Of a DNA stretch of 24,606 nt, positions 9,912-24,606 are shown piece after piece; position 1 is the stretch's first letter; every line of letters starts with the position of its first letter. The notes under the pieces were generated by a model. The model was not told the origin of the DNA. It made no database searches and was given only the letters and a program-made list of their open reading frames with translations. Source of the stretch: a virus. Taxonomy: Duplodnaviria; Heunggongvirae; Uroviricota; Caudoviricetes. Location of the stretch: the IMG/VR virus record IMGVR_UViG_2737471843_000007. One strand, given 5' to 3'. The position numbers and the translations under genes are program-made.

Positions 9912-11678
9912 ATGAACACCACACTGACACCCGCAGATCTCGATCCCCGTCGGCAGGCCATGCTGCTGTACTTTCAGGGATACCGCGTAGCCCGCATTGC
10001 TGAAATGCTGGGCGAGAAAGTTGCAACCGTTCACAGCTGGAAAAAACGCGACAAGTGGGGTGACTATGGGCCGCTGGATCAGATGCAGCTCACCACCGCC
10101 GCACGCTACTGCCAGCTCATCATGAAGGAGCACAAAGAAGGGAAAGATTTCAAAGAGATTGACCTGCTGGCGCGCCAGTCTGAGCGCCACGCGCGGATCG
10201 GCAAGTTTAACAATGGCGGCAACGAAGCCGACTTAAACCCTAACGTCGCCAACCGCAACAAAGGCCCGCGCCGTCAGCCGGAAAAAAATGTCTTCACCGA
10301 TGAACAGATTGAGAAGCTGGAAGAAATCTTCCATTCCTCCATGTTCAACTACCAGCGCCACTGGTGGGAAGCCGGAAAAACCAACCGCATCCGCAACCTG
10401 CTGAAGTCACGCCAGATCGGCGCGACCTTTTACTTTGCCCGTGAAGCCCTGATTGACGCCCTGCTTACCGGGCGTAACCAGATTTTCCTTTCCGCCAGTA
10501 AGGCACAGGCCCACGTCTTTAAGCAGTACATCATCGACTTCGCCAAAGAAGTGGAGGTGGAGCTGAAAGGCGATCCGATGGTGCTTCCTAACGGGGCCAC
10601 GCTTTACTTCCTCGGCACCAATGCCCGCACGGCCCAGAGTTATCACGGCAACCTGTATCTGGATGAATATTTCTGGATACCGAAATTTCAGGAGCTACGC
10701 AAAGTGGCTTCCGGTATGGCTATTCACAAGAAATGGCGGCAGACCTATTTTTCCACACCATCCAGTCTGACCCACAGTGCTTATCCGTTCTGGTCCGGTG
10801 CGCTGTTCAACCGTGGGCGCAACAAAGCTGACAAGGTGGACATCGACCTGTCCCACAGCAATCTGGCCCCCGGCCTGCTGTGCGCAGACGGGCAATACCG
10901 CCAGATAGTCACCGTGGAAGATGCGGTGCGCGGCGGCTGTAACCTGTTCGACCTCGACCAGTTGCGCATGGAGTACAGCCCGGACGAATACCAGAACCTG
11001 CTGATGTGTGAGTTCGTAGACGATCTCGCGTCCGTGTTCCCGCTCAGCGAGCTGCAGGCGTGCATGGTGGACAGCTGGGAAGTCTGGACCGACTTTCATG
11101 CACTGGCCCTGCGCCCGTTTGGCTGGCGCGAGGTGTGGATCGGTTATGACCCGGCAAAAGGTACGCAGAACGGCGACAGTGCCGGATGCGTGGTGGTGGC
11201 ACCGCCAGCCGTGCCGGGCGGCAAGTTCCGCATTCTTGAGCGTCACCAGTGGCGCGGGATGGACTTTCGCGCCCAAGCTGACGCCATCAAAAAACTGACC
11301 GAACAGTACAACGTGACCTATATCGGCATCGACTCAACCGGCGTTGGTCACGGGGTTTATGAGAACGTGAAAGCGTTCTTTCCTGCCGTCCGGGAGTTTG
11401 TCTACAACCCCAACGTTAAAAACGCCCTGGTACTCAAGGCCTACGACATTATCAGCCACCGCCGTCTGGAGTTTGACGCCGGGCACACCGACATTGCGCA
11501 GTCATTCATGGCAATCCGTCGCGCCACCACCGCCAGTGGCAACCGCCCGACCTATGAAGCCAGCCGCAGCGAAGAAGCCAGCCACGCCGATCTGGCCTGG
11601 GCAACGATGCACGCACTGTTTAACGAACCGCTGCAGGGCGAATCCGCCAATACCAGCAATATTGTGGAGATTTTTTGA
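9912..11678 (+). CDS. P: Terminase large (ATPase) subunit (P2 gpP-like)
   Basis: The 588-aa ORF has ATG at 9912. P2 gpP-like sequence is present throughout, and it is divergent from O as in P2. Confidence 0.95.
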   Translation: MNTTLTPADLDPRRQAMLLYFQGYRVARIAEMLGEKVATVHSWKKRDKWGDYGPLDQMQLTTAARYCQLIMKEHKEGKDFKEIDLLARQSERHARIGKFNNGGNEADLNPNVANRNKGPRRQPEKNVFTDEQIEKLEEIFHSSMFNYQRHWWEAGKTNRIRNLLKSRQIGATFYFAREALIDALLTGRNQIFLSASKAQAHVFKQYIIDFAKEVEVELKGDPMVLPNGATLYFLGTNARTAQSYHGNLYLDEYFWIPKFQELRKVASGMAIHKKWRQTYFSTPSSLTHSAYPFWSGALFNRGRNKADKVDIDLSHSNLAPGLLCADGQYRQIVTVEDAVRGGCNLFDLDQLRMEYSPDEYQNLLMCEFVDDLASVFPLSELQACMVDSWEVWTDFHALALRPFGWREVWIGYDPAKGTQNGDSAGCVVVAPPAVPGGKFRILERHQWRGMDFRAQADAIKKLTEQYNVTYIGIDSTGVGHGVYENVKAFFPAVREFVYNPNVKNALVLKAYDIISHRRLEFDAGHTDIAQSFMAIRRATTASGNRPTYEASRSEEASHADLAWATMHALFNEPLQGESANTSNIVEIF

Positions 11679-12715
11679 TGGGAAAGAGTAAGAAGAACCG
11701 CGCTGCGGCGACGAACCAGATTCAGCATAAAAGCCAGACTTCAGCCGAAGCATTCAGCTTCGGTGATCCCATTCCAGTACTGGACCGCCGCGAACTGCTG
11801 GACTATGTGGAATGCGTACAGATGGACCGCTGGTATGAGCCGCCCGTCAGCTTTGACGGACTGGCACGAACCTTCCGCGCCGCCGTGCATCACAGTTCCC
11901 CGATTGCAGTAAAGTGCAACATTCTGACCAGTACCTACATCCCTCACCCGCTGCTCAGCCAGCAGGCTTTTTCACGTTTTGTGCAGGACTATCTGGTATT
12001 TGGTAACGCCTACCTGGAGAAACGCACGAACCGCTTCGGTGAAGTTATCGCCCTTGAACCGGCCCTGGCAAAATACACCCGACGCGGGTTAGACCTGGAT
12101 ACCTACTGGTTTGTGCAATACGGTATGACAACACAGCCGTATCAGTTCACGAAAGGCAGCATCTTTCATCTGATGGAACCGGACATTAACCAGGAGATCT
12201 ACGGCCTGCCCGGCTATCTTTCTGCCATTCCGTCAGCCCTGCTCAATGAGTCCGCCACGCTGTTCCGCCGTAAGTATTACATCAACGGCAGCCATGCAGG
12301 CTTCATCATGTACATGACCGACGCCGCGCAGAATCAGGAGGATGTGAACAATCTCCGCAACGCGATGAAAAGCGCCAAAGGTCCAGGCAACTTCCGCAAC
12401 CTGTTTATGTACTCGCCTAACGGCAAAAAGGACGGCCTTCAGATCATCCCTTTGTCAGAAGTTGCGGCGAAGGATGAGTTTCTGAATATCAAAAATGTCA
12501 GCCGCGATGACATGATGGCAGCACATCGCGTTCCGCCACAGATGATGGGGATTATGCCAAATAATGTTGGGGGTTTTGGGGATGTGGAGAAGGCTAGTCT
12601 TGTATTTGTTCGCAATGAATTGATGCCACTACAGAAGCGACTACATGAACTAAACGAATGGGTGGGTGTAGAAGTAATACGTTTTGATGACTATGTTTTA
12701 GGTGTTCAGGAATAA
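11678..12715 (+). CDS. Q: Portal protein (P2 gpQ-like)
   Basis: ATG at 11678 overlaps the P stop (TGATG); the ORF-track start at 11675 is a TTG. Length (~345 aa) matches portal gpQ. Confidence 0.9.
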   Translation: MGKSKKNRAAATNQIQHKSQTSAEAFSFGDPIPVLDRRELLDYVECVQMDRWYEPPVSFDGLARTFRAAVHHSSPIAVKCNILTSTYIPHPLLSQQAFSRFVQDYLVFGNAYLEKRTNRFGEVIALEPALAKYTRRGLDLDTYWFVQYGMTTQPYQFTKGSIFHLMEPDINQEIYGLPGYLSAIPSALLNESATLFRRKYYINGSHAGFIMYMTDAAQNQEDVNNLRNAMKSAKGPGNFRNLFMYSPNGKKDGLQIIPLSEVAAKDEFLNIKNVSRDDMMAAHRVPPQMMGIMPNNVGGFGDVEKASLVFVRNELMPLQKRLHELNEWVGVEVIRFDDYVLGVQE

Positions 12716-12720
12716 AAGAA

Positions 12721-12744
12721 AAGGCGCTAATCTCAGCGCCTTTT
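12721..12744. terminator. Bidirectional Rho-independent terminator between Q and the convergent cargo cassette
   Basis: Hairpin AAGGCGCT-aatctc-AGCGCCTT is followed by TTTT on the plus strand and preceded by an A-run, giving a U-tract on the minus strand. Confidence 0.6.
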
Positions 12745-12761
12745 ATCTAACTAACCATATA

Positions 12762-13100
12762 TTAACAAACGGCGTATAAACCATCAAATCCAACGGAATG
12801 AACCTTTTTTGATGCTACTTCATTACTACGGCGTTGGATCACTTTTGCAATACTTTTTAAAATTGAAGGGGGTGCATTGCGAACCTTAACTTGACTCAAA
12901 ACTTTGGTTACACCGAATTTCACTACCAAAACACCAAAGATTTCATCAGAGTATGATTCTGAAATTGAATAAACACCGCTCAGATCTAAATCTACGGTAT
13001 ACCCTTCTTTAATGAACCCTTCAATCTTGTGTCGTTGGGGGATAGCCTGATTGCGCGAAGCCAGGTCACCCTCGGGTAACTTGTATGCGATTTTGTTCAT
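12762..13100 (-). CDS. Small STAS-like protein (DUF4325-like / anti-sigma-antagonist-like fold suspected); second gene of a two-gene cargo cassette
   Basis: The 112-aa ORF has a strong SD (AGGAGGAG). Its ATG overlaps the upstream stop (TAATG). The motif VDLDLSGVYSISESYSDEIFGVLVVKFG resembles STAS-like domains from memory; the region is AT-rich. Confidence 0.55.
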   Translation of the reverse strand: MNKIAYKLPEGDLASRNQAIPQRHKIEGFIKEGYTVDLDLSGVYSISESYSDEIFGVLVVKFGVTKVLSQVKVRNAPPSILKSIAKVIQRRSNEVASKKVHSVGFDGLYAVC

Positions 13101-14074
13101 TACTCTCCTCCTAACGCCCGCATTATTTCCATAAGCTGAGGGTCATTTTCTTCGCTATCTTTATCGACTGCCAGTTCATGAATCTTAAAACGGCAAGAAA
13201 TTGCTACACCCGGCCATTCAGTACGTAATTCAGTATAGCTCACTTCATCACCTATTGCTTCTAAGCATACATTTCCTGAAGCCAGTTGCAATTCCCCATT
13301 ATATGTTTTTATCAATTTCATCAAGTGATACAACCCAAGCCCTTGATGATTATTATCTTTTTCTTTGACCGAAACCCCGTGGCCAAACACACTACCCCCA
13401 ATAAAGTCCTGGGGAAGCTGCTGTGCCCAATCATCCTGCAAATCAGCATGCTTAGATGAATGTCCCTCTTGAATACACCATGCGATCGCATCCTGGTGAG
13501 TCTCAATTCCGGGTATACCAGCTCGCCGCAATTCTCGGAGAAATCCTAACCCACAGTCCGCCAAAGAAAATTCTAAATAGTGCTCTTTTTTTTGAGTGTG
13601 GGGTACAGCCGAACGTTGTGCAAAAGAAAAACCCGTTGATTTTCCATGCGACCAAACGTTATCGTGAAGCTCACCTATAACATGGGTTAGATCTGTAAGT
13701 CCCTTGGGACAATCTCTCGGATCACGATCAGGGAATGTTAACTGCCTTACACAACTGTTAATACTACCAGTGGCAACGTCAACAGCTTCAACATTGGTTA
13801 ATGCTGTAACCAAACTGTAATTTCTTCCAACATTTACACGTTCCTGTTGATACTGATCCTCTCCCCATAAAGCACCATGTAAATTGATAGCTCGCATATA
13901 GCCAGGGCATGACAAAACACAGTTATCTTCGGTAATTTTGTGATGATTCACGTAAGCTGCTAAGACAGTGATAAAACCAGGATGCCAATGATTGTTTGGC
14001 AATTGCAATTCATTAGTTTCCTTTTGATGAAACGCAGCGGTATGCACAATAGCGTCTTTTAATCCTAACCCCAT
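13100..14074 (-). CDS. GHKL (histidine-kinase-like, Bergerat fold) ATPase-domain protein; first gene of the cargo cassette
   Basis: The 324-aa ORF carries, in correct order, an N-box-like GELHDNVWSHG, a G1-box LADCGLGF (DxGxG) and a G2-box HQGLGLYHL (GxGxG). It is AT-rich and translationally coupled to the downstream small gene. Confidence 0.6.
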   Translation of the reverse strand: MGLGLKDAIVHTAAFHQKETNELQLPNNHWHPGFITVLAAYVNHHKITEDNCVLSCPGYMRAINLHGALWGEDQYQQERVNVGRNYSLVTALTNVEAVDVATGSINSCVRQLTFPDRDPRDCPKGLTDLTHVIGELHDNVWSHGKSTGFSFAQRSAVPHTQKKEHYLEFSLADCGLGFLRELRRAGIPGIETHQDAIAWCIQEGHSSKHADLQDDWAQQLPQDFIGGSVFGHGVSVKEKDNNHQGLGLYHLMKLIKTYNGELQLASGNVCLEAIGDEVSYTELRTEWPGVAISCRFKIHELAVDKDSEENDPQLMEIMRALGGE

Positions 14075-14103
14075 GAACCGAACCTTTTTTATGCATTTTT
14101 CTT

Positions 14104-14132
14104 ATCATATAACTTAGGACTGATCAGCGCAA
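14104..14132 (-). promoter_or_regulatory. Candidate sigma70 promoter for the GHKL/STAS cassette
   Basis: On the minus strand: TTGCGC, 17-nt spacer, TATGAT, about 25 nt upstream of the ATG at 14074. Confidence 0.35.
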
Positions 14133-14192
14133 AGCTCCCGACACTATTGAATCATACTAAATTAAGGCCTATACCACACAGCACAGCGCGCG

Positions 14193-14211
14193 CTCGTATC
14201 CCCGCCACGCC
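14193..14211. other. Candidate cos site (cohesive-end sequence of the P2/186 family)
   Basis: The minus strand reads GGCGTGGCGGGGATACGAG. The first 13 nt match the cohesive-end sequence of P2/186 as I recall it (GGCG[A/T]GGCGGGGA...). It lies between the early region and the late region, as expected. Confidence 0.5.
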
Positions 14212-14255
14212 TGCCCGCTTTATGTAGTGGTTTTCATGCACCTGCATGATCTACG

Positions 14256-14280
14256 CAAAAGCCCGCCAGAACTGGCGGGC
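14256..14280 (-). terminator. Rho-independent terminator ending the minus-strand early/cargo transcript before cos
   Basis: Perfect inverted repeat GCCCGCCAG-aa-CTGGCGGGC, followed on the minus strand by TTTTG. Confidence 0.55.
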
Positions 14281-14384
14281 CTTAACACAAAAGATCCTCA
14301 AACGATCATGCGATCTCATGCAGCATAGACATGCGCGTTTATGCAGAATGTGCAAAATCGTAACATACTCAGTAAGCGTGAAAC

Positions 14385-15062
14385 CTAGAACGTGACAGCC
14401 TTGTCAAAGCCAGAAATAATTGTATAAGAAATAGACGAGTTATCAGCCTTGTTCACTTTGAACTTGGCACCTTTGTAAGCGATAACGTCACTTCCCTTAG
14501 AATCTACAGAAAAATCTGTTGTAAATGCTGCACGAGCCATATCGTTTGCAAATTCACGATAGGTGAACTTCATTACACCGCCTGCATTTCCATTGTATTC
14601 GATAGTCTTAACCAATGAGTTACTAACTCGACACAGCCCATCAGGAACACGTTTGATAGAAATTTCTGATGCAGTATAAGAAGTACCATTTGGCGGTGAT
14701 ATCTCATTTTTTGCAGCATCGTAACTAACATAATCAACATAGTTACCGATTTGCCCATAGAGATTTTTTAACGCAACAGCTTGAGGGTTATGATAATTGC
14801 GGTAAATTCCATTCCCCTCACTGCAATATGTACCAGCAGCGATAGAAGACAATGCACCATTAGCCGCACCAAGTTCTAGTACGTCCGTTTTAAATCCAGT
14901 AGCAGATGTGATAATGGGATCGCCCATGTAGGCGGTAGCACTTTGCCCAATAGCAGGCTTCACCACTTCAATAGCAGTGATATTTCGGTTAGAAGCATGT
15001 GGCACGCAACCAGTTAGGATTACAGCAAGAGATATTGGTAACGCTACATTATTAATTTTCAT
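14385..15062 (-). CDS. Cargo lipoprotein of unknown function (predicted outer-membrane lipoprotein)
   Basis: From the internal Met the protein starts MKINNVALPISLAVILTGC, with lipobox LTGC. The ORF-track start at 15116 would span a hairpin plus T-tract and is rejected. The start coordinate may be off by 1-2 nt. The region is AT-rich. Confidence 0.6.
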   Translation of the reverse strand: MKINNVALPISLAVILTGCVPHASNRNITAIEVVKPAIGQSATAYMGDPIITSATGFKTDVLELGAANGALSSIAAGTYCSEGNGIYRNYHNPQAVALKNLYGQIGNYVDYVSYDAAKNEISPPNGTSYTASEISIKRVPDGLCRVSNSLVKTIEYNGNAGGVMKFTYREFANDMARAAFTTDFSVDSKGSDVIAYKGAKFKVNKADNSSISYTIISGFDKAVTF

Positions 15063-15175
15063 TTTTAGCCTATTATTCTTTTCTTGACAAAAAACAAGGC
15101 GATATCTGATTGACATCGCCTCTCACTCATATGTAACCCTTTTTGATTAGTAAAAACAAGCGTCTATTGACAAAA

Positions 15176-15409
15176 TCAATGCAGCCAGCTGTCGTCTTCC
15201 CACACCTTCTGCATAATTTTCATCACTTGTTTTCTTTCTTCGTCCAGTTGCAGTCCGGTCAGTTCCACACCGTTAGAGCTACCTTTACGGATACGGATTA
15301 CCGTTTTGGGATACAGGGGGCGCAGATTGCGGTAAAGCTCGGATTCAAGGGCGTCCAGGGTAGACTGGCTAATCTTCTGCTCTTTATCGATCATTATTTC
15401 AATGCGCAT
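15176..15409 (-). CDS. DinI-like protein (SOS-associated; possibly the DinI-like part of a Tum-type module)
   Basis: From the internal ATG at 15409, preceded by SD GAGGTGA, the protein MRIEIMIDKEQKISQSTLDALESELYRNLRP...WEDDSWLH resembles E. coli DinI (MRIEVTIAK...). The longer ORF-track N-terminus is rejected. Confidence 0.75.
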   Translation of the reverse strand: MRIEIMIDKEQKISQSTLDALESELYRNLRPLYPKTVIRIRKGSSNGVELTGLQLDEERKQVMKIMQKVWEDDSWLH

Positions 15410-15419
15410 AAAAGTCACC

Positions 15420-15608
15420 TCAACTGATGACATCCATTGAGCGGTTGTATTCGTGGGTTCTGATTTTTGCCATGAGTTCATCAGTCAATTCAGAAACCCA
15501 CTGCAGAGCCAGCCCCTTTTCTTCATCACTACACTCACTAGCCGCTACAAGCTTAAGAAAAAAATCAATGCGCTGGAGCTTCAAAGACTCCAAAAAATAG
15601 TCCTGCAT
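15420..15608 (-). CDS. Small SOS-controlled ORF upstream of the DinI-like gene (Tum-like N-terminal module?)
   Basis: The 62-aa ORF has a strong SD (AGGAGG) 6-8 nt before the ATG and a perfect LexA box ~45 nt upstream. It stops 11 nt before the DinI-like ATG. Confidence 0.5.
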   Translation of the reverse strand: MQDYFLESLKLQRIDFFLKLVAASECSDEEKGLALQWVSELTDELMAKIRTHEYNRSMDVIS

Positions 15609-15651
15609 CTTTCCTCCTATGACACCACAAGCAATACTGTATACATAACCA

Positions 15652-15667
15652 CTGTTTATATTTACAG
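15652..15667. promoter_or_regulatory. LexA box (SOS operator)
   Basis: CTGTttatatttACAG is a perfect CTGT-N8-ACAG. An overlapping half-site box (CTGTatacataaCCAC) lies immediately upstream at 15637-15652. Confidence 0.7.
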
Positions 15668-15761
15668 CATATAATAATCTTACTGATGTAAAACGTTTTT
15701 TTACGCTTATCAGCCTGATATGCCTGGTATTATTAAGAGCACGAATTGTTAACCAGCGTAA

Positions 15762-18176
15762 TTAATACAGGTTCCGCCACTTATCATCTTCCTGCAAACG
15801 CTGGTTCCGATAGAAGATACGCAAGCCTGCTCCTGACGGAATACTGCCGCCGCGAAGGAGTAAATCGACCTCTTTCTCGCTACCATCAAATCCTCTGGAC
15901 TTCAGCTCATAGACGAGCTGCAGTCGCTGATGGTCTGTAATTCGCTGTTTGTAGTCTTTACGCCGTTTCGGTTTCACCAGGCGTAACCTTGCAGCCAGTT
16001 CCCGGCGCTCTTTTTTGTTCATACTGTGCAGGTAATCGTGCAACTCCTTGTCATCCATGCTGGTAATGTCCGTTCTGGGGGCCCCATCAGCTGATTTATC
16101 TTTCTCCTGTTGGTTCAAATTTTCAGCAAGGGGACAGTTATTGCCACGAGTCCAAGGGGCGCAAGCGCCCTGGTCGGCTGCCGCCTCCTGAACGTCAACG
16201 GCCTTACGAACCATTTTCCACTTCACGGCATGAGTGCAGATTTTGCCCTCTGTAATGGGTGACCAGATGCCATAAATACGAATGCCGTGATCGCCATAGG
16301 CGGTCGGCTCTTCGTTGATTTCATAAGCGGTTCTGATGAGGTGATATTTACGGGGAACCAGTACGCCGCCCTGCTTCATGATGTAGGTGGCAAAACAACC
16401 AGCATCAGCTGCAGCCAGAATGGCATCAAGGCGCGGGTTATCCAGTACCGGCGCACCTGCTTTTTTGTCACCCTGTTGCCTTGCCGCCTGACCAGCCAGC
16501 AATCGCAGTTCACGGTAAGCCTGACGCCCCGGAATGCCAAAGAAGCGGAATTGCTGAACACGATGCAGAGACGCCCAGGCATTAACGTATTCAGCGTTAT
16601 CACGCAGAGATTTACCCGTTTCCTTGCTGATCTCGCCAGCCAGACCACGCCCGTCAATGTTCTTACTGATGTATTTCGCGATGTAGCTAGTCGGCGTTCC
16701 TTTGCGCGGGTTTATCAGCTCAGACTTAAAGCGTGGCCCCGTGTTATTACCCAGCTCCTCGCGGTCTTCACGGATAGCAAACTTACGCAACAATGCAGTA
16801 ATGGCGCGGCGGTCTTTTTTGCGCATGAAACACAACAGGTGCCAGTGAACTGTGCCGTCATGATGCGGCTCAGCCACCCGCACGCCATACCAGCGCAATC
16901 CGGCTTTGTGCATCGCCTTACGAAATGCAGCAAACATGCCGACCAGATAATCACTGCTTTGTCTTACCGTCGCATTTGTCCAGGTCGGGTTGGGCCTGCC
17001 GTTATTTAGCGTGGAATGGAAACGTGACGGACAGGTGATGGTGTAGAAAACGGCGCAGTCACCGCGCATTTCCGCGATAAGCTCCAGACCTTTAACACAG
17101 GCCATCATCTCATTGCGGCGATGCGCAGGGTTGCTGCTGCTGGCGTTTACCACATCCTCCATGTCCAGCGTATCGCCGTCTTCGTTCACCAGTTCATGAG
17201 AACGGAAAAACTCCAGCGACTTACGGCGCTGCTCACGTTTATGCATCACGGCTTCATAGCTGACATAGGGAGATGCTTTTTTGCTGACCAGGCAAACAGC
17301 ACGCAACTGCTCTTCCCGCCATTCGCAACGCATCTTCCACAATTTCCGATACCACCAGTCGGCGCACAGCATACGCGCCAGCGACCCCGGAATGAGTTCA
17401 TAGGGCACGGGTTTACGGCGGTTTCTTTTCCGGCGGAGTTGCTCAAACGCAGGCGGTATGACATCCAGTCGCAGGGTTTCCGCCGCCACCTTTTCCCATG
17501 TCTTGCGGATTTCTTCTGGCTTAACGTCATCGGTGGCATACAAATCGCCACAAGCGGCATCAAGGCACATGCTCATATGCGCAGCTACCAGGGTGGACAG
17601 GCGTTTCACCTGATCCTGACTCATTTCAGGCAGGATCAGCAGACCGTCCAGCCCTTCATGGCTTGCCATAAAGCGAAAAGAAGTGGATAGCTGACTGTCG
17701 CGTACATGCTCCAGTCGTTCCAGACATGGCTTAATCGTCTCACGCAAATAGCGGGAATAAGCCTTTGGCCTGCCCAGGCTGCTGAAGTATTCAATACGTT
17801 GCATCAGCGGCTTGCTGATATGGGAAGGCTGGGCGTTGACGTCCGCCAGAATGACCATATCCGGATTAAAACGCTGCTGCTCATGCGCCAGCTTTGCCCG
17901 ACTAATGAGCTTATCCTGTTCCATTTCGCGCTGGACAGGATCACGGGATTCATTAAAGAAATAACGCTCCCAGACCTGATCACTCAGCGCCTCACGGCGC
18001 AGCTGTTCCTGCTCGTTATCGGCAGCGTACAGAGTGATCAGGTTTGAAAGCGCAGAAACCGGCGCAACTTCCGCCGGGTCCAGATAAGGGTTAATGGCCT
18101 TTTTCGGGCTGTTCCATGAGAATGCTGCGGCGACCTCGTTAAAGCCGCTGCAGTTGTTCATATCAGCATGGCTCAT
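15762..18176 (-). CDS. A: Rolling-circle replication initiator (P2 gpA / 186 A-like, HUH endonuclease)
   Basis: The 804-aa ORF contains an HUH-type motif ([10 protein letters not shown]) and tyrosine motif ([10 protein letters not shown]). It is translationally coupled to the upstream methylase (ATGA). Confidence 0.95.
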
Positions 18177-21081: not shown

Positions 21082-21176
21082 GATGCAACATCTCCTATTG
21101 GCTTGTGGTGAGCCTGTAGTAATCGTGACAAGTACCCAAATGGGGACAAAACTGATACTAGGATCGCAAAAGAGAT
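21082..21176. promoter_or_regulatory. Lysis/lysogeny switch region between apl and cI (expected face-to-face pR/pL promoters and CI operators)
   Basis: It is a 95-bp divergent intergenic region between the first lytic gene and the repressor gene. Individual operators could not be assigned by eye. Confidence 0.5.
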
Positions 21177-21773
21177 ATGTCAACATCAAAGTACCCAAGT
21201 GAGATCAAAATAAATCCCAATAAAGGTGGTAAGGCTGCGATTGAGCGATTAGTCGAAGCTTATGGCTTTACGACACGACAGGCTTTAGCTGATCACTTGG
21301 AAGTATCAAAAAGCACTCTGGCGAACAGGTATTTGCGGGATACGTTTCCTGCAGACTGGATAATCCAATGTGCTCTTGAAACAGGAACCTCACTGAAATG
21401 GTTAACCACCGGGCAAGGACTTAAGCAAAGCTCGCTGACAGTAGCCACAGAAGAGCTTCCCAAGTTTCGCCTTACCGCAGGCAAAATGATTGAAGATGGT
21501 TCATATGTCTTCGATTCATCATTTCTTCCTGCAAATCTTTCATCACCAATTGTTATTCAGGATGGGCTTGTCACATACATTTGTGATCAAAAATTTTCTG
21601 AAGTACTTGATGGGCACTGGTTAATCAACATCGACGGAACCTATTCCATTCGAAAAATCACAAAGCTTCCAAAAGGTATGATTAAAATTACAACTACAGA
21701 GAATAGCTTTGAATGTGCATTTTCTGATATTGAAGTGGTTGCTTGTATAAGAAGTACAATAGTTTCAAATTGA
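21177..21773 (+). CDS. cI: CI-type immunity repressor (186 CI-like)
   Basis: The 198-aa ORF has an N-terminal HTH region (GFTTRQALADHLEVSKSTLANRYLR) and the conserved CALETG motif, upstream of int as in 186. Confidence 0.75.
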   Translation: MSTSKYPSEIKINPNKGGKAAIERLVEAYGFTTRQALADHLEVSKSTLANRYLRDTFPADWIIQCALETGTSLKWLTTGQGLKQSSLTVATEELPKFRLTAGKMIEDGSYVFDSSFLPANLSSPIVIQDGLVTYICDQKFSEVLDGHWLINIDGTYSIRKITKLPKGMIKITTTENSFECAFSDIEVVACIRSTIVSN

Positions 21774-21793
21774 TATAGTAAAAGGATTTAAAA

Positions 21794-23470
21794 ATGAATT
21801 CATTTTCCATCGTTATATTCTTATTAGCATTTCTCGCCCCTGTTCTAGCTATAATATTATTTAAGCAAAGTAAAGAACACAAAACCGCCATAGATAACCT
21901 GACGGCTAACAACATAGCTCTTTCCAGCCAACTGAAAGAAAATCAAGAAGAATTAGCACAGACTGTACGAGATCTATCAGAGCTTGAAGGACGAGCTGCA
22001 CCATTATGGCAATACGTAGAATTGCACAGCGCAGTGATGGAAGCAGAGAATAAGATAAAAAATGCAGACTCAATAGCCAGGCAAAAAATAGAAGAAGCCC
22101 AAATAAAGGCTGCTAAGACAGTAAACGAAGCAAATTATCAAGCTCAGATAACAATAAGCAACGCTAATAGCGAAGCTATAGCAATCACCAAAGACGCTCG
22201 CGATGCACGCCTGAAAGCCAAAGAACGTCTTGATAATGCCAACAGTAAAGCAAATGAGCTGATCTCAAATGCTAATGACAACGCAGTAAAAATTATTTCC
22301 GATGCAGAAGAAAGAGCAAAAGAGATTGCTGGTTCAGCATATGAAGCTAAAGAGTTTGCAGAAAAATATGAAGCAGTTGCCAAATCAATGAAAAATAAAA
22401 TTGAAGGTTATGGCGATGAATGGATCATCCCTAACCGTAGTGTACTTGATGAATTGGCAGAAAATTATGAGTTTACAGATGCAGGCAAGGAATTACAAAA
22501 AGCCAGGGAGTTAACAAAATCATTAATAAAAACTAATAAAGCAGCTTCGTGTGATTATGTTGAGCAAAACAGGCGTAATACTGCTATCAACTTTGTTTTG
22601 GATGCCTTCAATGGAAGAGTTGACAGTATTTTATCAAAAGTCAAACACAACAATTTTGGAAAACTTTCCCAAGAAATAAAAGATGCATTTCAACTTGTAA
22701 ATTATAATGGCTCTGCTTTTAAATCCGCAAAAATAAGTGACATCTATCTTCAGGCACGACTCAACGAGCTAAAATGGGGAGTTGCAGTTAATGAAATTAT
22801 GCTCGAAGAAAAAGAGGAGCAAAGAAGGATTAAAGAACAGCTTCGTGAAGAGGAAAGAGCTCGTAGAGAGTATGAAAAAGCGATAAAAGAAGCCGAAAAA
22901 GAAGAGAAAGCTATTCAACAAGCTATAAATAAAGCGACGAAAGAGCTTATGCTTGCAAATGAAGAACAACGCTTAGCTTTAGAGCAAAAAATAGCTGAAC
23001 TACAGTTAAAATATGAAGAAGCTGAAGCTAAAAACCAACGAGCTATTTCTATGGCTCAACAAACTAGATCAGGCCATGTTTATATAATTAGCAATATTGG
23101 CTCATTTGGCGAAGATGTATATAAAATTGGAATGACACGCCGCCTTGAACCACTTGATCGTGTTCGTGAACTTGGGGATGCTAGTGTTCCTTTTTCGTTC
23201 GATGTTCATGCGATGATTTATAGTGATGATGCACCGTCATTAGAAAATCATCTGCATAAAGTCTTCAACGAAAAGCAGGTCAATAAAATTAACTCACGAA
23301 AAGAGTTTTTTAACGTAAATATTAAAGAAATTAAATCGGTTATTGAAGATATGAACATCAATGCCCACTGGACAATGTTTGCAGAGGCGAAAGAATATAG
23401 AGAGTCACTAGCTATTGAGCAGGAACGCAAAGCAGCCACTTCCGCCAACGATGAACTACATGTTGCTTAG
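21794..23470 (+). CDS. Cargo gene: membrane-anchored coiled-coil protein with DUF4041-like region and C-terminal T5orf172 (GIY-YIG-like) domain
   Basis: The 558-aa ORF has SD AAGGA before the ATG and is strongly AT-rich. It has an N-terminal TM (FSIVIFLLAFLAPVLAIILF) and a long K/E/A-rich coiled coil. The C-terminus GHVYIISNIGSFGEDVYKIGMTRRLEPLDRVRELGD...LENHLHKVFNEKQVN...KEFFNV fits the T5orf172/Mug113 pattern. Confidence 0.7.
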   Translation: MNSFSIVIFLLAFLAPVLAIILFKQSKEHKTAIDNLTANNIALSSQLKENQEELAQTVRDLSELEGRAAPLWQYVELHSAVMEAENKIKNADSIARQKIEEAQIKAAKTVNEANYQAQITISNANSEAIAITKDARDARLKAKERLDNANSKANELISNANDNAVKIISDAEERAKEIAGSAYEAKEFAEKYEAVAKSMKNKIEGYGDEWIIPNRSVLDELAENYEFTDAGKELQKARELTKSLIKTNKAASCDYVEQNRRNTAINFVLDAFNGRVDSILSKVKHNNFGKLSQEIKDAFQLVNYNGSAFKSAKISDIYLQARLNELKWGVAVNEIMLEEKEEQRRIKEQLREEERARREYEKAIKEAEKEEKAIQQAINKATKELMLANEEQRLALEQKIAELQLKYEEAEAKNQRAISMAQQTRSGHVYIISNIGSFGEDVYKIGMTRRLEPLDRVRELGDASVPFSFDVHAMIYSDDAPSLENHLHKVFNEKQVNKINSRKEFFNVNIKEIKSVIEDMNINAHWTMFAEAKEYRESLAIEQERKAATSANDELHVA

Positions 23471-23528
23471 CAATGTATGTTTCATAGCAATCACACATTG
23501 ATTACTGGTTGTATATACAGTTAAATTT

Positions 23529-23553
23529 AGCCCTCTGATATGAGGGCTTTTTT
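23529..23553 (+). terminator. Rho-independent terminator immediately upstream of the int start codon
   Basis: Hairpin AGCCCTC-tgatat-GAGGGCT is followed by TTTTT, which runs directly into the int ATG at 23554. Confidence 0.6.
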
Positions 23554-24606
23554 ATGGCAGTACGAAAACTCACCACAGGAAAATGGCTGTGCGAATGTTA
23601 TCCCGCCGGACGTAGTGGACGTCGTGTGCGTAAACAATTCGCCACCAAAGGCGAAGCTCTGGCTTTTGAGCGTCACACGATGGAAGAAACCGAAGCAAAG
23701 CCCTGGCTAGGTGAATCAGTGGATCGTCGAACACTGAAAGACGTGGTTGAGCTATGGTTCAAACTACATGGTAAATCACTGACTGCTGGGCAGCATGTCT
23801 ATGACAAATTGCTGCTGATGGTTGACGCTCTGGGCAATCCCCTTGCAACGGATCTAACCTCTAAAATGTTTGCCCACTATCGAGATAAACGCCTGACAGG
23901 CGAGATCTACTTCAGCGAGAAATGGAAGAAAGGAGCAAGCCCGGTCACCATTAACCTGGAGCAAAGCTATCTAAGTAGTGTTTTTAGCGAACTATCCCGT
24001 CTGGGCGAATGGTCGTATCCGAACCCACTGGAGAACATGCGAAAATTCACCATCGCAGAAAAAGAGATGGCATGGCTTACCCATGAGCAGATTGTTGAAT
24101 TGCTGGCTGATTGCAAACGTCAGGACCCAATTCTGGCACTGGTAGTTAAGATATGCTTAAGCACAGGCGCACGCTGGCGTGAAGCCGTAAATCTTACCCG
24201 CTCACAGGTGACCAAATACCGAATTACCTTTGTCAGAACGAAGGGGAAGAAAAACAGAAGCATCCCTATCAGTAAAGAGCTTTACGAAGAGATCATGGCG
24301 CTCGATGGGTTCAATTTCTTCACAGACTGCTATTTTCAATTTTTATCCGTGATGGAAAAAACGTCTATCGTGCTCCCTCGCGGTCAACTCACACACGTTC
24401 TGCGCCATACGTTTGCAGCGCACTTCATGATGTCGGGTGGAAACATTCTGGCCTTACAAAAAATTCTCGGACACCACGATATAAAAATGACTATGCGTTA
24501 CGCACATCTGGCACCGGATCATCTGGAAACGGCGCTCCGTTTCAATCCTCTGGCAACGCTGCCAAGTGGCGACAAAGTGGCGGCAGCGGTTGGCATTACC
24601 CCGTAA
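23554..24606 (+). CDS. int: Tyrosine integrase (P2/186 Int family)
   Basis: The 350-aa ORF has an N-terminus MAVRKLTTGKW...GRRVRKQFATKGEALAFE like P2 Int, and C-terminal catalytic motifs (HVLRHTFA; MRYAHL). Confidence 0.9.
   Translation: MAVRKLTTGKWLCECYPAGRSGRRVRKQFATKGEALAFERHTMEETEAKPWLGESVDRRTLKDVVELWFKLHGKSLTAGQHVYDKLLLMVDALGNPLATDLTSKMFAHYRDKRLTGEIYFSEKWKKGASPVTINLEQSYLSSVFSELSRLGEWSYPNPLENMRKFTIAEKEMAWLTHEQIVELLADCKRQDPILALVVKICLSTGARWREAVNLTRSQVTKYRITFVRTKGKKNRSIPISKELYEEIMALDGFNFFTDCYFQFLSVMEKTSIVLPRGQLTHVLRHTFAAHFMMSGGNILALQKILGHHDIKMTMRYAHLAPDHLETALRFNPLATLPSGDKVAAAVGITP

Follow-up and report, generated by a model that had tools for sequence, protein, structure and literature searches.

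A SNIPE (PD-Lambda-1) family gene with a divergent N-terminal region lies between cI and int in a 186/P2-like prophage

The DNA analysed here, referred to as the window, is the complete 24,606-nt stretch of virus record IMGVR_UViG_2737471843_000007 (Caudoviricetes), which represents a 186/P2-like prophage. Between the repressor gene cI and the integrase gene int the open reading frame (ORF) listing gives a single long frame, which starts with ATG and specifies a protein of 558 amino acids (aa). This gene belongs to the family of the single-gene anti-phage system PD-lambda-1, now known as SNIPE, and the features of the locus are as follows.

21177..21773, plus strand: 186-type CI repressor, 198 aa (Pfam Phage_CI_repr, Phage_CI_C)
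21430..23490, no strand assigned: variable low-GC module composed of the CI C-terminal domain and SNIPE (blastn boundaries against the closest SNIPE-less sister prophages)
21782..21786, plus strand: Shine-Dalgarno sequence AAGGA, 7 nt 5′ of the SNIPE-gene ATG (from the sequence)
21794..23470, plus strand: SNIPE/PD-lambda-1 family gene, a single-gene anti-phage system (ORF list, PADLOC, Pfam)
21803..21862, plus strand: N-terminal hydrophobic segment, residues 4-23, predicted single-pass membrane anchor (Kyte-Doolittle, AlphaFold2 helix)
21872..22585, plus strand: N-terminal, mainly helical adaptor region, residues 27-264 (BLASTP, AlphaFold2)
22592..22759, plus strand: DUF4041 (Pfam PF13250, now labelled 'SNIPE'), residues 267-322 (Pfam)
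22769..23062, plus strand: long charged helix that links DUF4041 to the nuclease, residues 326-423 (AlphaFold2 helices 316-387 and 390-422; aligns with the SNIPE linker)
23072..23353, plus strand: GIY-YIG-type nuclease domain (T5orf172/MUG113), residues 427-520 (Pfam)
23243..23245, plus strand: codon for E484, aligned to the catalytic E414 of SNIPE in the motif APSLE (BLASTP; invariant column)
23529..23553, plus strand: hairpin AGCCCTC-TGATAT-GAGGGCT followed by a T-run (terminator scan; conserved in an alignment with five sister prophages)
23554..24606, plus strand: tyrosine integrase, 350 aa, the right-hand backbone flank (Pfam Int_N, Phage_integrase)

The guanine plus cytosine (GC) content of the gene is 0.372 (0.279 at third codon positions, GC3), as compared to 0.488 for int (GC3 0.501) and 0.502 for the window, and cI is likewise of low GC (0.400, GC3 0.327). 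An earlier interpretation made from the DNA letters alone (the sequence-only reading) had placed at 21794-23553 a strongly AT-rich cargo gene with its own ribosome binding site and terminator. The AT-richness and the ribosome binding site are borne out by the composition and the Shine-Dalgarno sequence, and the claimed span holds for the ORF up to 23470; the remainder, 23471-23553, is non-coding and from approximately 23490 consists of a conserved int leader. The exact 558-aa protein is public under many accessions, for example AXH85252.1, and on 254 contigs.

The protein was called as PD-Lambda-1 by PADLOC model PDLC03976 (E 8.5e-120, 398.9 bits), with residues 107-550 aligned to positions 37-481 of the 491 positions of the hidden Markov model (HMM), and a second model, PDLC03977, matched at E 2.9e-116. 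In Pfam, DUF4041, for which the precomputed label now reads 'SNIPE', was matched at E 3.1e-12 and 46.6 bits (gathering cut-off 27), while at the C-terminus T5orf172 (residues 427-520, E 1.1e-16) and MUG113 (residues 443-520, E 1.6e-19) were both matched above their gathering cut-offs. Residues 4-23 represent the sole hydrophobic segment of the protein, with a Kyte-Doolittle 19-mer mean of 2.99 and all other windows at or below 1.6, and are directly followed by the lysines K24, K27 and K30; the positive-inside rule, coupled with the PhoA/LacZ mapping of the homologue, predicts that the N-terminus faces the periplasm and that the body of the protein is cytoplasmic. An AlphaFold2 model built on 72 diverse homologues (mean predicted local distance difference test score, pLDDT, of 85) comprises an unbroken helix at residues 2-204, a mainly helical globular region containing DUF4041, a linker helix of approximately 100 residues (316-422) and an alpha/beta domain at 427-520. 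In the PDB, no sequence match was obtained at E up to 1. The transmembrane (TM) helix, the long helical stretch, DUF4041 and the T5orf172/MUG113 domain of the GIY-YIG clan, all of which had been named in the sequence-only reading, were thus recovered by Pfam, hydropathy and structure prediction, both Pfam domains that it had put forward for checking being among them.

Vassallo et al. (2022, PMC9519451) obtained PD-lambda-1 from E. coli ECOR26 in a functional selection, and Saxton et al. (Nature 2026, PMC13190303) characterised it under the new name SNIPE. The reference protein, RCP76574.1, is 500 aa long and carries DUF4041 at residues 197-252 and T5orf172 at 357-448 (PMC9519451). Our comparison protein was a 500-aa reference-type SNIPE from an E. 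coli lambdoid prophage (L004), which reaches a full-length score of 659 bits with the PD-Lambda-1 HMM and which is of equal length to RCP76574.1 with essentially equal domain coordinates; the match between these two proteins is one of length, domain coordinates and HMM score. A megablast search for the reference SNIPE type gave no match, and blastn, which is more sensitive, detected it at 72% DNA identity in the nuclease only. At the protein level, BLASTP aligned the 558-aa protein with the L004 protein at 49% identity over residues 265-555 (approximately 293 C-terminal residues, E 1e-76), the identity of the aligned nuclease core being visibly higher, and the catalytic glutamate was found to be retained, as E414 of SNIPE corresponds to E484. 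In a homologue alignment of 72 sequences, these being representatives clustered at 50% identity, the invariant positions were Y430, G436, G439, G446, T448, E459, F469, E484, N497 and F506. At E up to 1e-3 the family amounts to 3,370 representative clusters, and an N-terminal hydrophobic segment is present in 106 of 124 full-length family representatives.

By the standard criteria, namely the profile match, DUF4041, a GIY-YIG domain with its catalytic glutamate and an N-terminal membrane helix, the window gene is a member of the SNIPE/PD-lambda-1 family. It shares with the SNIPE of ECOR26 a single-gene, prophage-borne organisation, recognition by one PADLOC model, and the domain order of N-terminal TM helix, helical region, DUF4041, long linker helix and GIY-YIG nuclease. 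The sole criterion that differs is the N-terminal adaptor, which does not define the family, as this region is highly variable across 474 SNIPE homologues (PMC13190303). The genomic setting also differs: the window gene is part of the lysogenic cI-int operon in a myovirus prophage of 186/P2-like type, and the reference-type gene occupies the nin/replication region of a lambdoid prophage. The gene next to the latter (L004:5846-7393) encodes a 515-aa HD-domain protein without a PADLOC match, which may be a neighbouring defence candidate.

The novelty implied for the gene by the sequence-only reading did not survive these comparisons, as the gene is already known and is labelled by PADLOC, by RefSeq PGAP and by current Pfam. 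In RefSeq, genes nearly identical to it, at 98.9-99.8% of the DNA, bear the name 'SNIPE associated domain-containing protein' or 'DUF4041 domain-containing protein', and the gene family, its mechanism and the kind of prophage hotspot in which it resides are all published; the identification therefore carries little weight for discovery.

SNIPE is constitutively located at the inner membrane, with a periplasmic N-terminus and a cytoplasmic body, and it is associated both with ManYZ and with the phage tape measure protein (PMC13190303). Its DUF4041 binds both DNA and the tape measure protein, and phage DNA is cleaved during injection and not following prophage induction (PMC13190303). Defence requires DUF4041 together with the GIY-YIG catalytic residue E414, the E414A substitution abolishing defence as well as toxicity, while removal of the TM helix renders SNIPE toxic and leads it to cleave the chromosome (PMC13190303). 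The protection is direct and not abortive: cells do not lyse, and infected cells survive and grow, also at high multiplicities of infection, unlike a parallel abortive-infection control (PMC13190303). The target range covers siphoviruses, with no protection against the myoviruses or podoviruses tested, and gain-of-function substitutions at E223 and W257 shift this range (PMC13190303). Zorya, Kiwa and the superinfection-exclusion proteins of prophages are similar in that they reside at the inner membrane and act at genome injection (PMC13190303), yet they are unrelated to the window protein in sequence and architecture, and the latter has no PADLOC match to any of them.

In view of this biology, the window gene very probably encodes a SNIPE-family defence protein that is membrane-anchored, cuts incoming phage DNA and does not kill its host. 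Its long helical N-terminal region would represent the variable adaptor, DUF4041 would bind DNA and the injecting phage's tape measure protein, and the GIY-YIG nuclease, with E484 as its catalytic residue, would cut the phage genome as it enters across the membrane. Infection would be halted without death of the host cell, and retention of the nuclease at the membrane would spare the chromosome. The gene would be transcribed together with cI from the lysogenic promoter and be constitutive in lysogens, its product shielding host and prophage from other phages. The single-gene anti-phage function as prophage cargo that the sequence-only reading had proposed is thus favoured both by the PADLOC call and by the experimental validation of the family (PMC9519451, PMC13190303).

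Co-transcription with cI is most likely, because only 20 nt separate the cI stop codon (21771-21773) from the SNIPE-gene ATG and because the gene appears to have no promoter of its own, as no sigma-70-like promoter was found between the two genes in a promoter scan; across the whole 3-kb region, promoter-like sites were fewer than in shuffled sequence (2 as compared to 7.6). The cI and int genes of phage 186 form one lysogenic operon.

Several points weigh against this interpretation. Residues 1-264 of the window protein gave no BLASTP alignment to reference-type SNIPE, and the stretch ahead of DUF4041 is 70 aa longer in the window protein than in SNIPE (558 as compared to 500 aa in total). 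The specificity-altering positions E223 and W257 of SNIPE correspond to S292 and K327. As residues 1-264 are without detectable similarity to SNIPE, the ManYZ association and the lambda specificity cannot be transferred to the window protein. The topology, the cleavage during injection and the direct nature of the defence are projected from the published homologue, as is defence by this N-terminal variant as such, while spacing and the negative promoter scan form the basis for co-transcription. The same divergence makes the window gene a natural SNIPE variant with an unrelated N-terminus, suited to testing whether phage specificity is determined by the N-terminus, as published work proposes. 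It is conceivable, albeit speculative, that this unrelated and longer adaptor steers the window SNIPE to an inner-membrane injection route other than ManYZ with a different target range, and that co-inheritance with the cI allele reflects functional coupling, for example of dosage via CI autoregulation, and not hitch-hiking.

The strongest of the rival explanations, already raised in the sequence-only reading, is that the protein acts as an abortive-infection effector, whereby infection would free or activate the nuclease, host and phage DNA would both be destroyed and the cell would die. The toxicity and chromosome cleavage of SNIPE lacking its TM helix (PMC13190303) indicate that such a nuclease could kill the cell, and the behaviour of a protein with an N-terminal region unlike that of the tested SNIPE could differ. 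However, the characterised homologue provides direct defence, with survival of infected cells at high multiplicity of infection (PMC13190303), and the TM anchor, DUF4041 and the nuclease are all conserved in the window protein; an abortive role is accordingly improbable.

Placement of the SNIPE-family gene was assessed by comparison of the cI-int interval across related prophages. The cI and int genes of phage 186 abut, the stop codon of the former overlapping the start codon of the latter, in keeping with the adjacency given in the sequence-only reading, and the window therefore carries an extra gene at this position. Sister prophages with the same flanks contain different sequences between cI and int, as expected of a cargo hotspot, and SNIPE is not conserved there, related prophages holding other cargo; this agrees with the placement in a prophage regulatory hotspot that had been suggested. 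Alternative cargo at this site consists of a 63-aa ORF, or of a longer cI with two helix-turn-helix (HTH) domains combined with a 314-aa unknown protein or with a 349-aa unknown protein, the latter in Klebsiella phage 4LV2017. In these last two cases (L005:2135-3969 and L002:1324-3317) cI is of 292 or 313 aa with two CI-type HTH domains, and the 314-aa and 349-aa proteins behind it had no Pfam or PADLOC match; the longer cI and its companion appear to form an alternative two-gene module that recurs at this position. In the prophage of E. coli E2348/69 (L010:2013-4479), the site holds a second cI-like gene with two CI-type HTH domains, followed by a gene for a 505-aa KAP-family P-loop NTPase, which has a match to the PADLOC candidate PDC-S20 (E 5e-78) and a weaker one to PifA.

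Comparable hotspots have been described in P2-related prophages, namely a cI-integrase hotspot in Vibrio K139-like prophages (Rousset et al. 2022, PMC9122126) and, among 3,574 P2-like prophages, minor defence hotspots at integrase-primase (8% of systems) and integrase-att (3%) (NAR 2026, PMC13586616). These resemble the site described here in having variable content beside the integrase and conserved flanks, but differ in that the exchange unit here takes in part or all of cI, so that immunity allele and cargo move together.

The limits of this unit were defined by blastn. Homology to the closest SNIPE-less sister prophages breaks on the left at approximately 21429, within cI and just past the HTH domain, or at 21127-21184 as compared to L002 and L005, and the right-hand break falls at 23489-23495. 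What is exchanged is thus a module of approximately 2.06 kb and low GC, made up of SNIPE and either the C-terminal domain of cI or the entire cI gene. The 1.7-kb insertion between cI and int that had been proposed holds in respect of an extra gene relative to phage 186, but what is swapped is this larger unit. At the joint within cI, the N-terminal HTH is shared at 81-92% DNA identity while the C-terminal domains are unrelated at the DNA level, and the operator-binding and oligomerisation domains of CI are therefore shuffled independently. A CII gene (Pfam) is located upstream in divergent orientation.

A survey of 5,426 complete E. coli genomes revealed the SNIPE gene in 164 (3%) and this cI allele at full length in 163, the comparison being one of totals. 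No genome was found with the full-length cI allele and without SNIPE, eight additional matches spanning only the first third of cI. The int allele is far commoner, being present in 1,135 genomes, 164 of which contain SNIPE, and 181 genomes match solely the last ~40-80 nt before int. Klebsiella phage KP12 carries the whole cI-SNIPE-int block at 99% identity, and Escherichia phage vB_EcoM-813R9 at 96%. The order cI (198 aa), SNIPE (558 aa) and int recurs with identical spacing in prophages of Klebsiella and Citrobacter, at identities to the window of 80-84% for cI, 83-84% for SNIPE and 90-93% for int; given the same arrangement with parallel divergence across genera, the module is therefore old and co-diverging. 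The N-terminal part is the fastest-diverging region of SNIPE (58-79% identity, as compared to 89-94%), in agreement with the published pattern; for the adaptor region, residues 27-264, identity between genera is 78-79%, as compared to 89-90% for the domains. The variant is a common one, which besides E. coli also occurs in Klebsiella, Citrobacter and Salmonella, and in this prophage lineage an immunity allele and a defence gene are exchanged as one module.

This linkage bears on a second explanation, according to which the protein is a component of phage lysogeny or maintenance, either as partner of one CI allele or as a chromosome-segregation protein resembling SMC. Strict co-inheritance with one cI allele and a position inside the lysogenic operon are in its favour, as is the name 'chromosome segregation ATPase' given in GenBank phage records; this annotation is carried by Klebsiella phage KP12 (L001:3695-5371) and by Escherichia phage vB_EcoM-813R9. 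On the other side, neither Pfam nor NCBIfam contained an ATPase or SMC family matching the 558-aa protein, which is without a Walker A/B head. Moreover, close prophages with the same int, cII and replication genes are without the SNIPE gene and carry other cargo, the reference SNIPE is located in an unrelated lambdoid prophage beside different genes, and a single recombination joint inside cI explains the linkage. We consider a lysogeny function very unlikely. The protein contains no ATPase domain, so that its coiled coil is the most likely source of the erroneous name, and identification of the gene as SNIPE corrects this annotation in the phage records. A sub-threshold NCBIfam match to DivIVA/Wag31 (24.5 bits, cut-off 260) was set aside as reflecting coiled-coil composition.

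That the gene is instead a selfish GIY-YIG homing-type endonuclease cassette, spreading by cutting empty cI-int sites in related prophages and without a defence role, is equally hard to credit, since homing endonucleases of the I-TevI type are soluble nucleases with a sequence-specific DNA-binding module, either free-standing or intronic, whereas the window protein has a TM anchor, DUF4041 and a match to a defence HMM over most of its length, no homing-endonuclease DNA-binding module was found in it by Pfam, and its stable linkage to one cI allele with co-divergence across genera contrasts with frequent invasion of new sites.

The hairpin downstream of the SNIPE-family gene had been read as the terminator of the cargo gene itself, and this proved not to be so. 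The hairpin proper (23529-23548) has a 7-bp GC-rich stem and a fold z-score of -2.5, its T-run ends at the int ATG, and its 3′ arm (GAGGG) constitutes the int Shine-Dalgarno sequence. It is kept, with compensatory stem changes, in five sister prophages which carry other cargo and lack the SNIPE gene, and it is an element of the backbone int leader and not part of the cargo. As it abuts the int start, provides the int Shine-Dalgarno sequence in its 3′ arm and is conserved across different cargo, its sequence suggests that it may limit int expression from the lysogenic transcript, either by termination or by translational masking.

A second variable spot in the relatives of this prophage is located between int and the prophage end, which represents the published integrase-att hotspot (window positions 24565-24606). 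The window appears to be without any such cargo. In the relatives (L003:7793-8122, L007:5629-6894, L008:5581-6974 and L011:7795-8770) the cargo is variously a DUF2971 protein, a Panacea-domain protein together with a hypothetical protein, a pentapeptide-repeat protein or an 89-aa ORF.

The classical P2 defence hotspot corresponds to window positions 12716-15761, between the portal gene (11675-12715, plus strand) and the replication gene A (15762-18176, minus strand). GC in this interval is low (0.37-0.45), and the ORF list gives three frames in it.

12762-13100, minus strand: ORF of 112 aa
13100-14074, minus strand: ORF of 324 aa
14385-15116, minus strand: ORF of 243 aa

The 324-aa and 243-aa ORFs had no Pfam or PADLOC match and hit only the PHROG families of unknown function phrog_3364 and phrog_1353. 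The ORFs of this interval may represent uncharacterised defence cargo, and as such are potentially of greater interest than the SNIPE gene.

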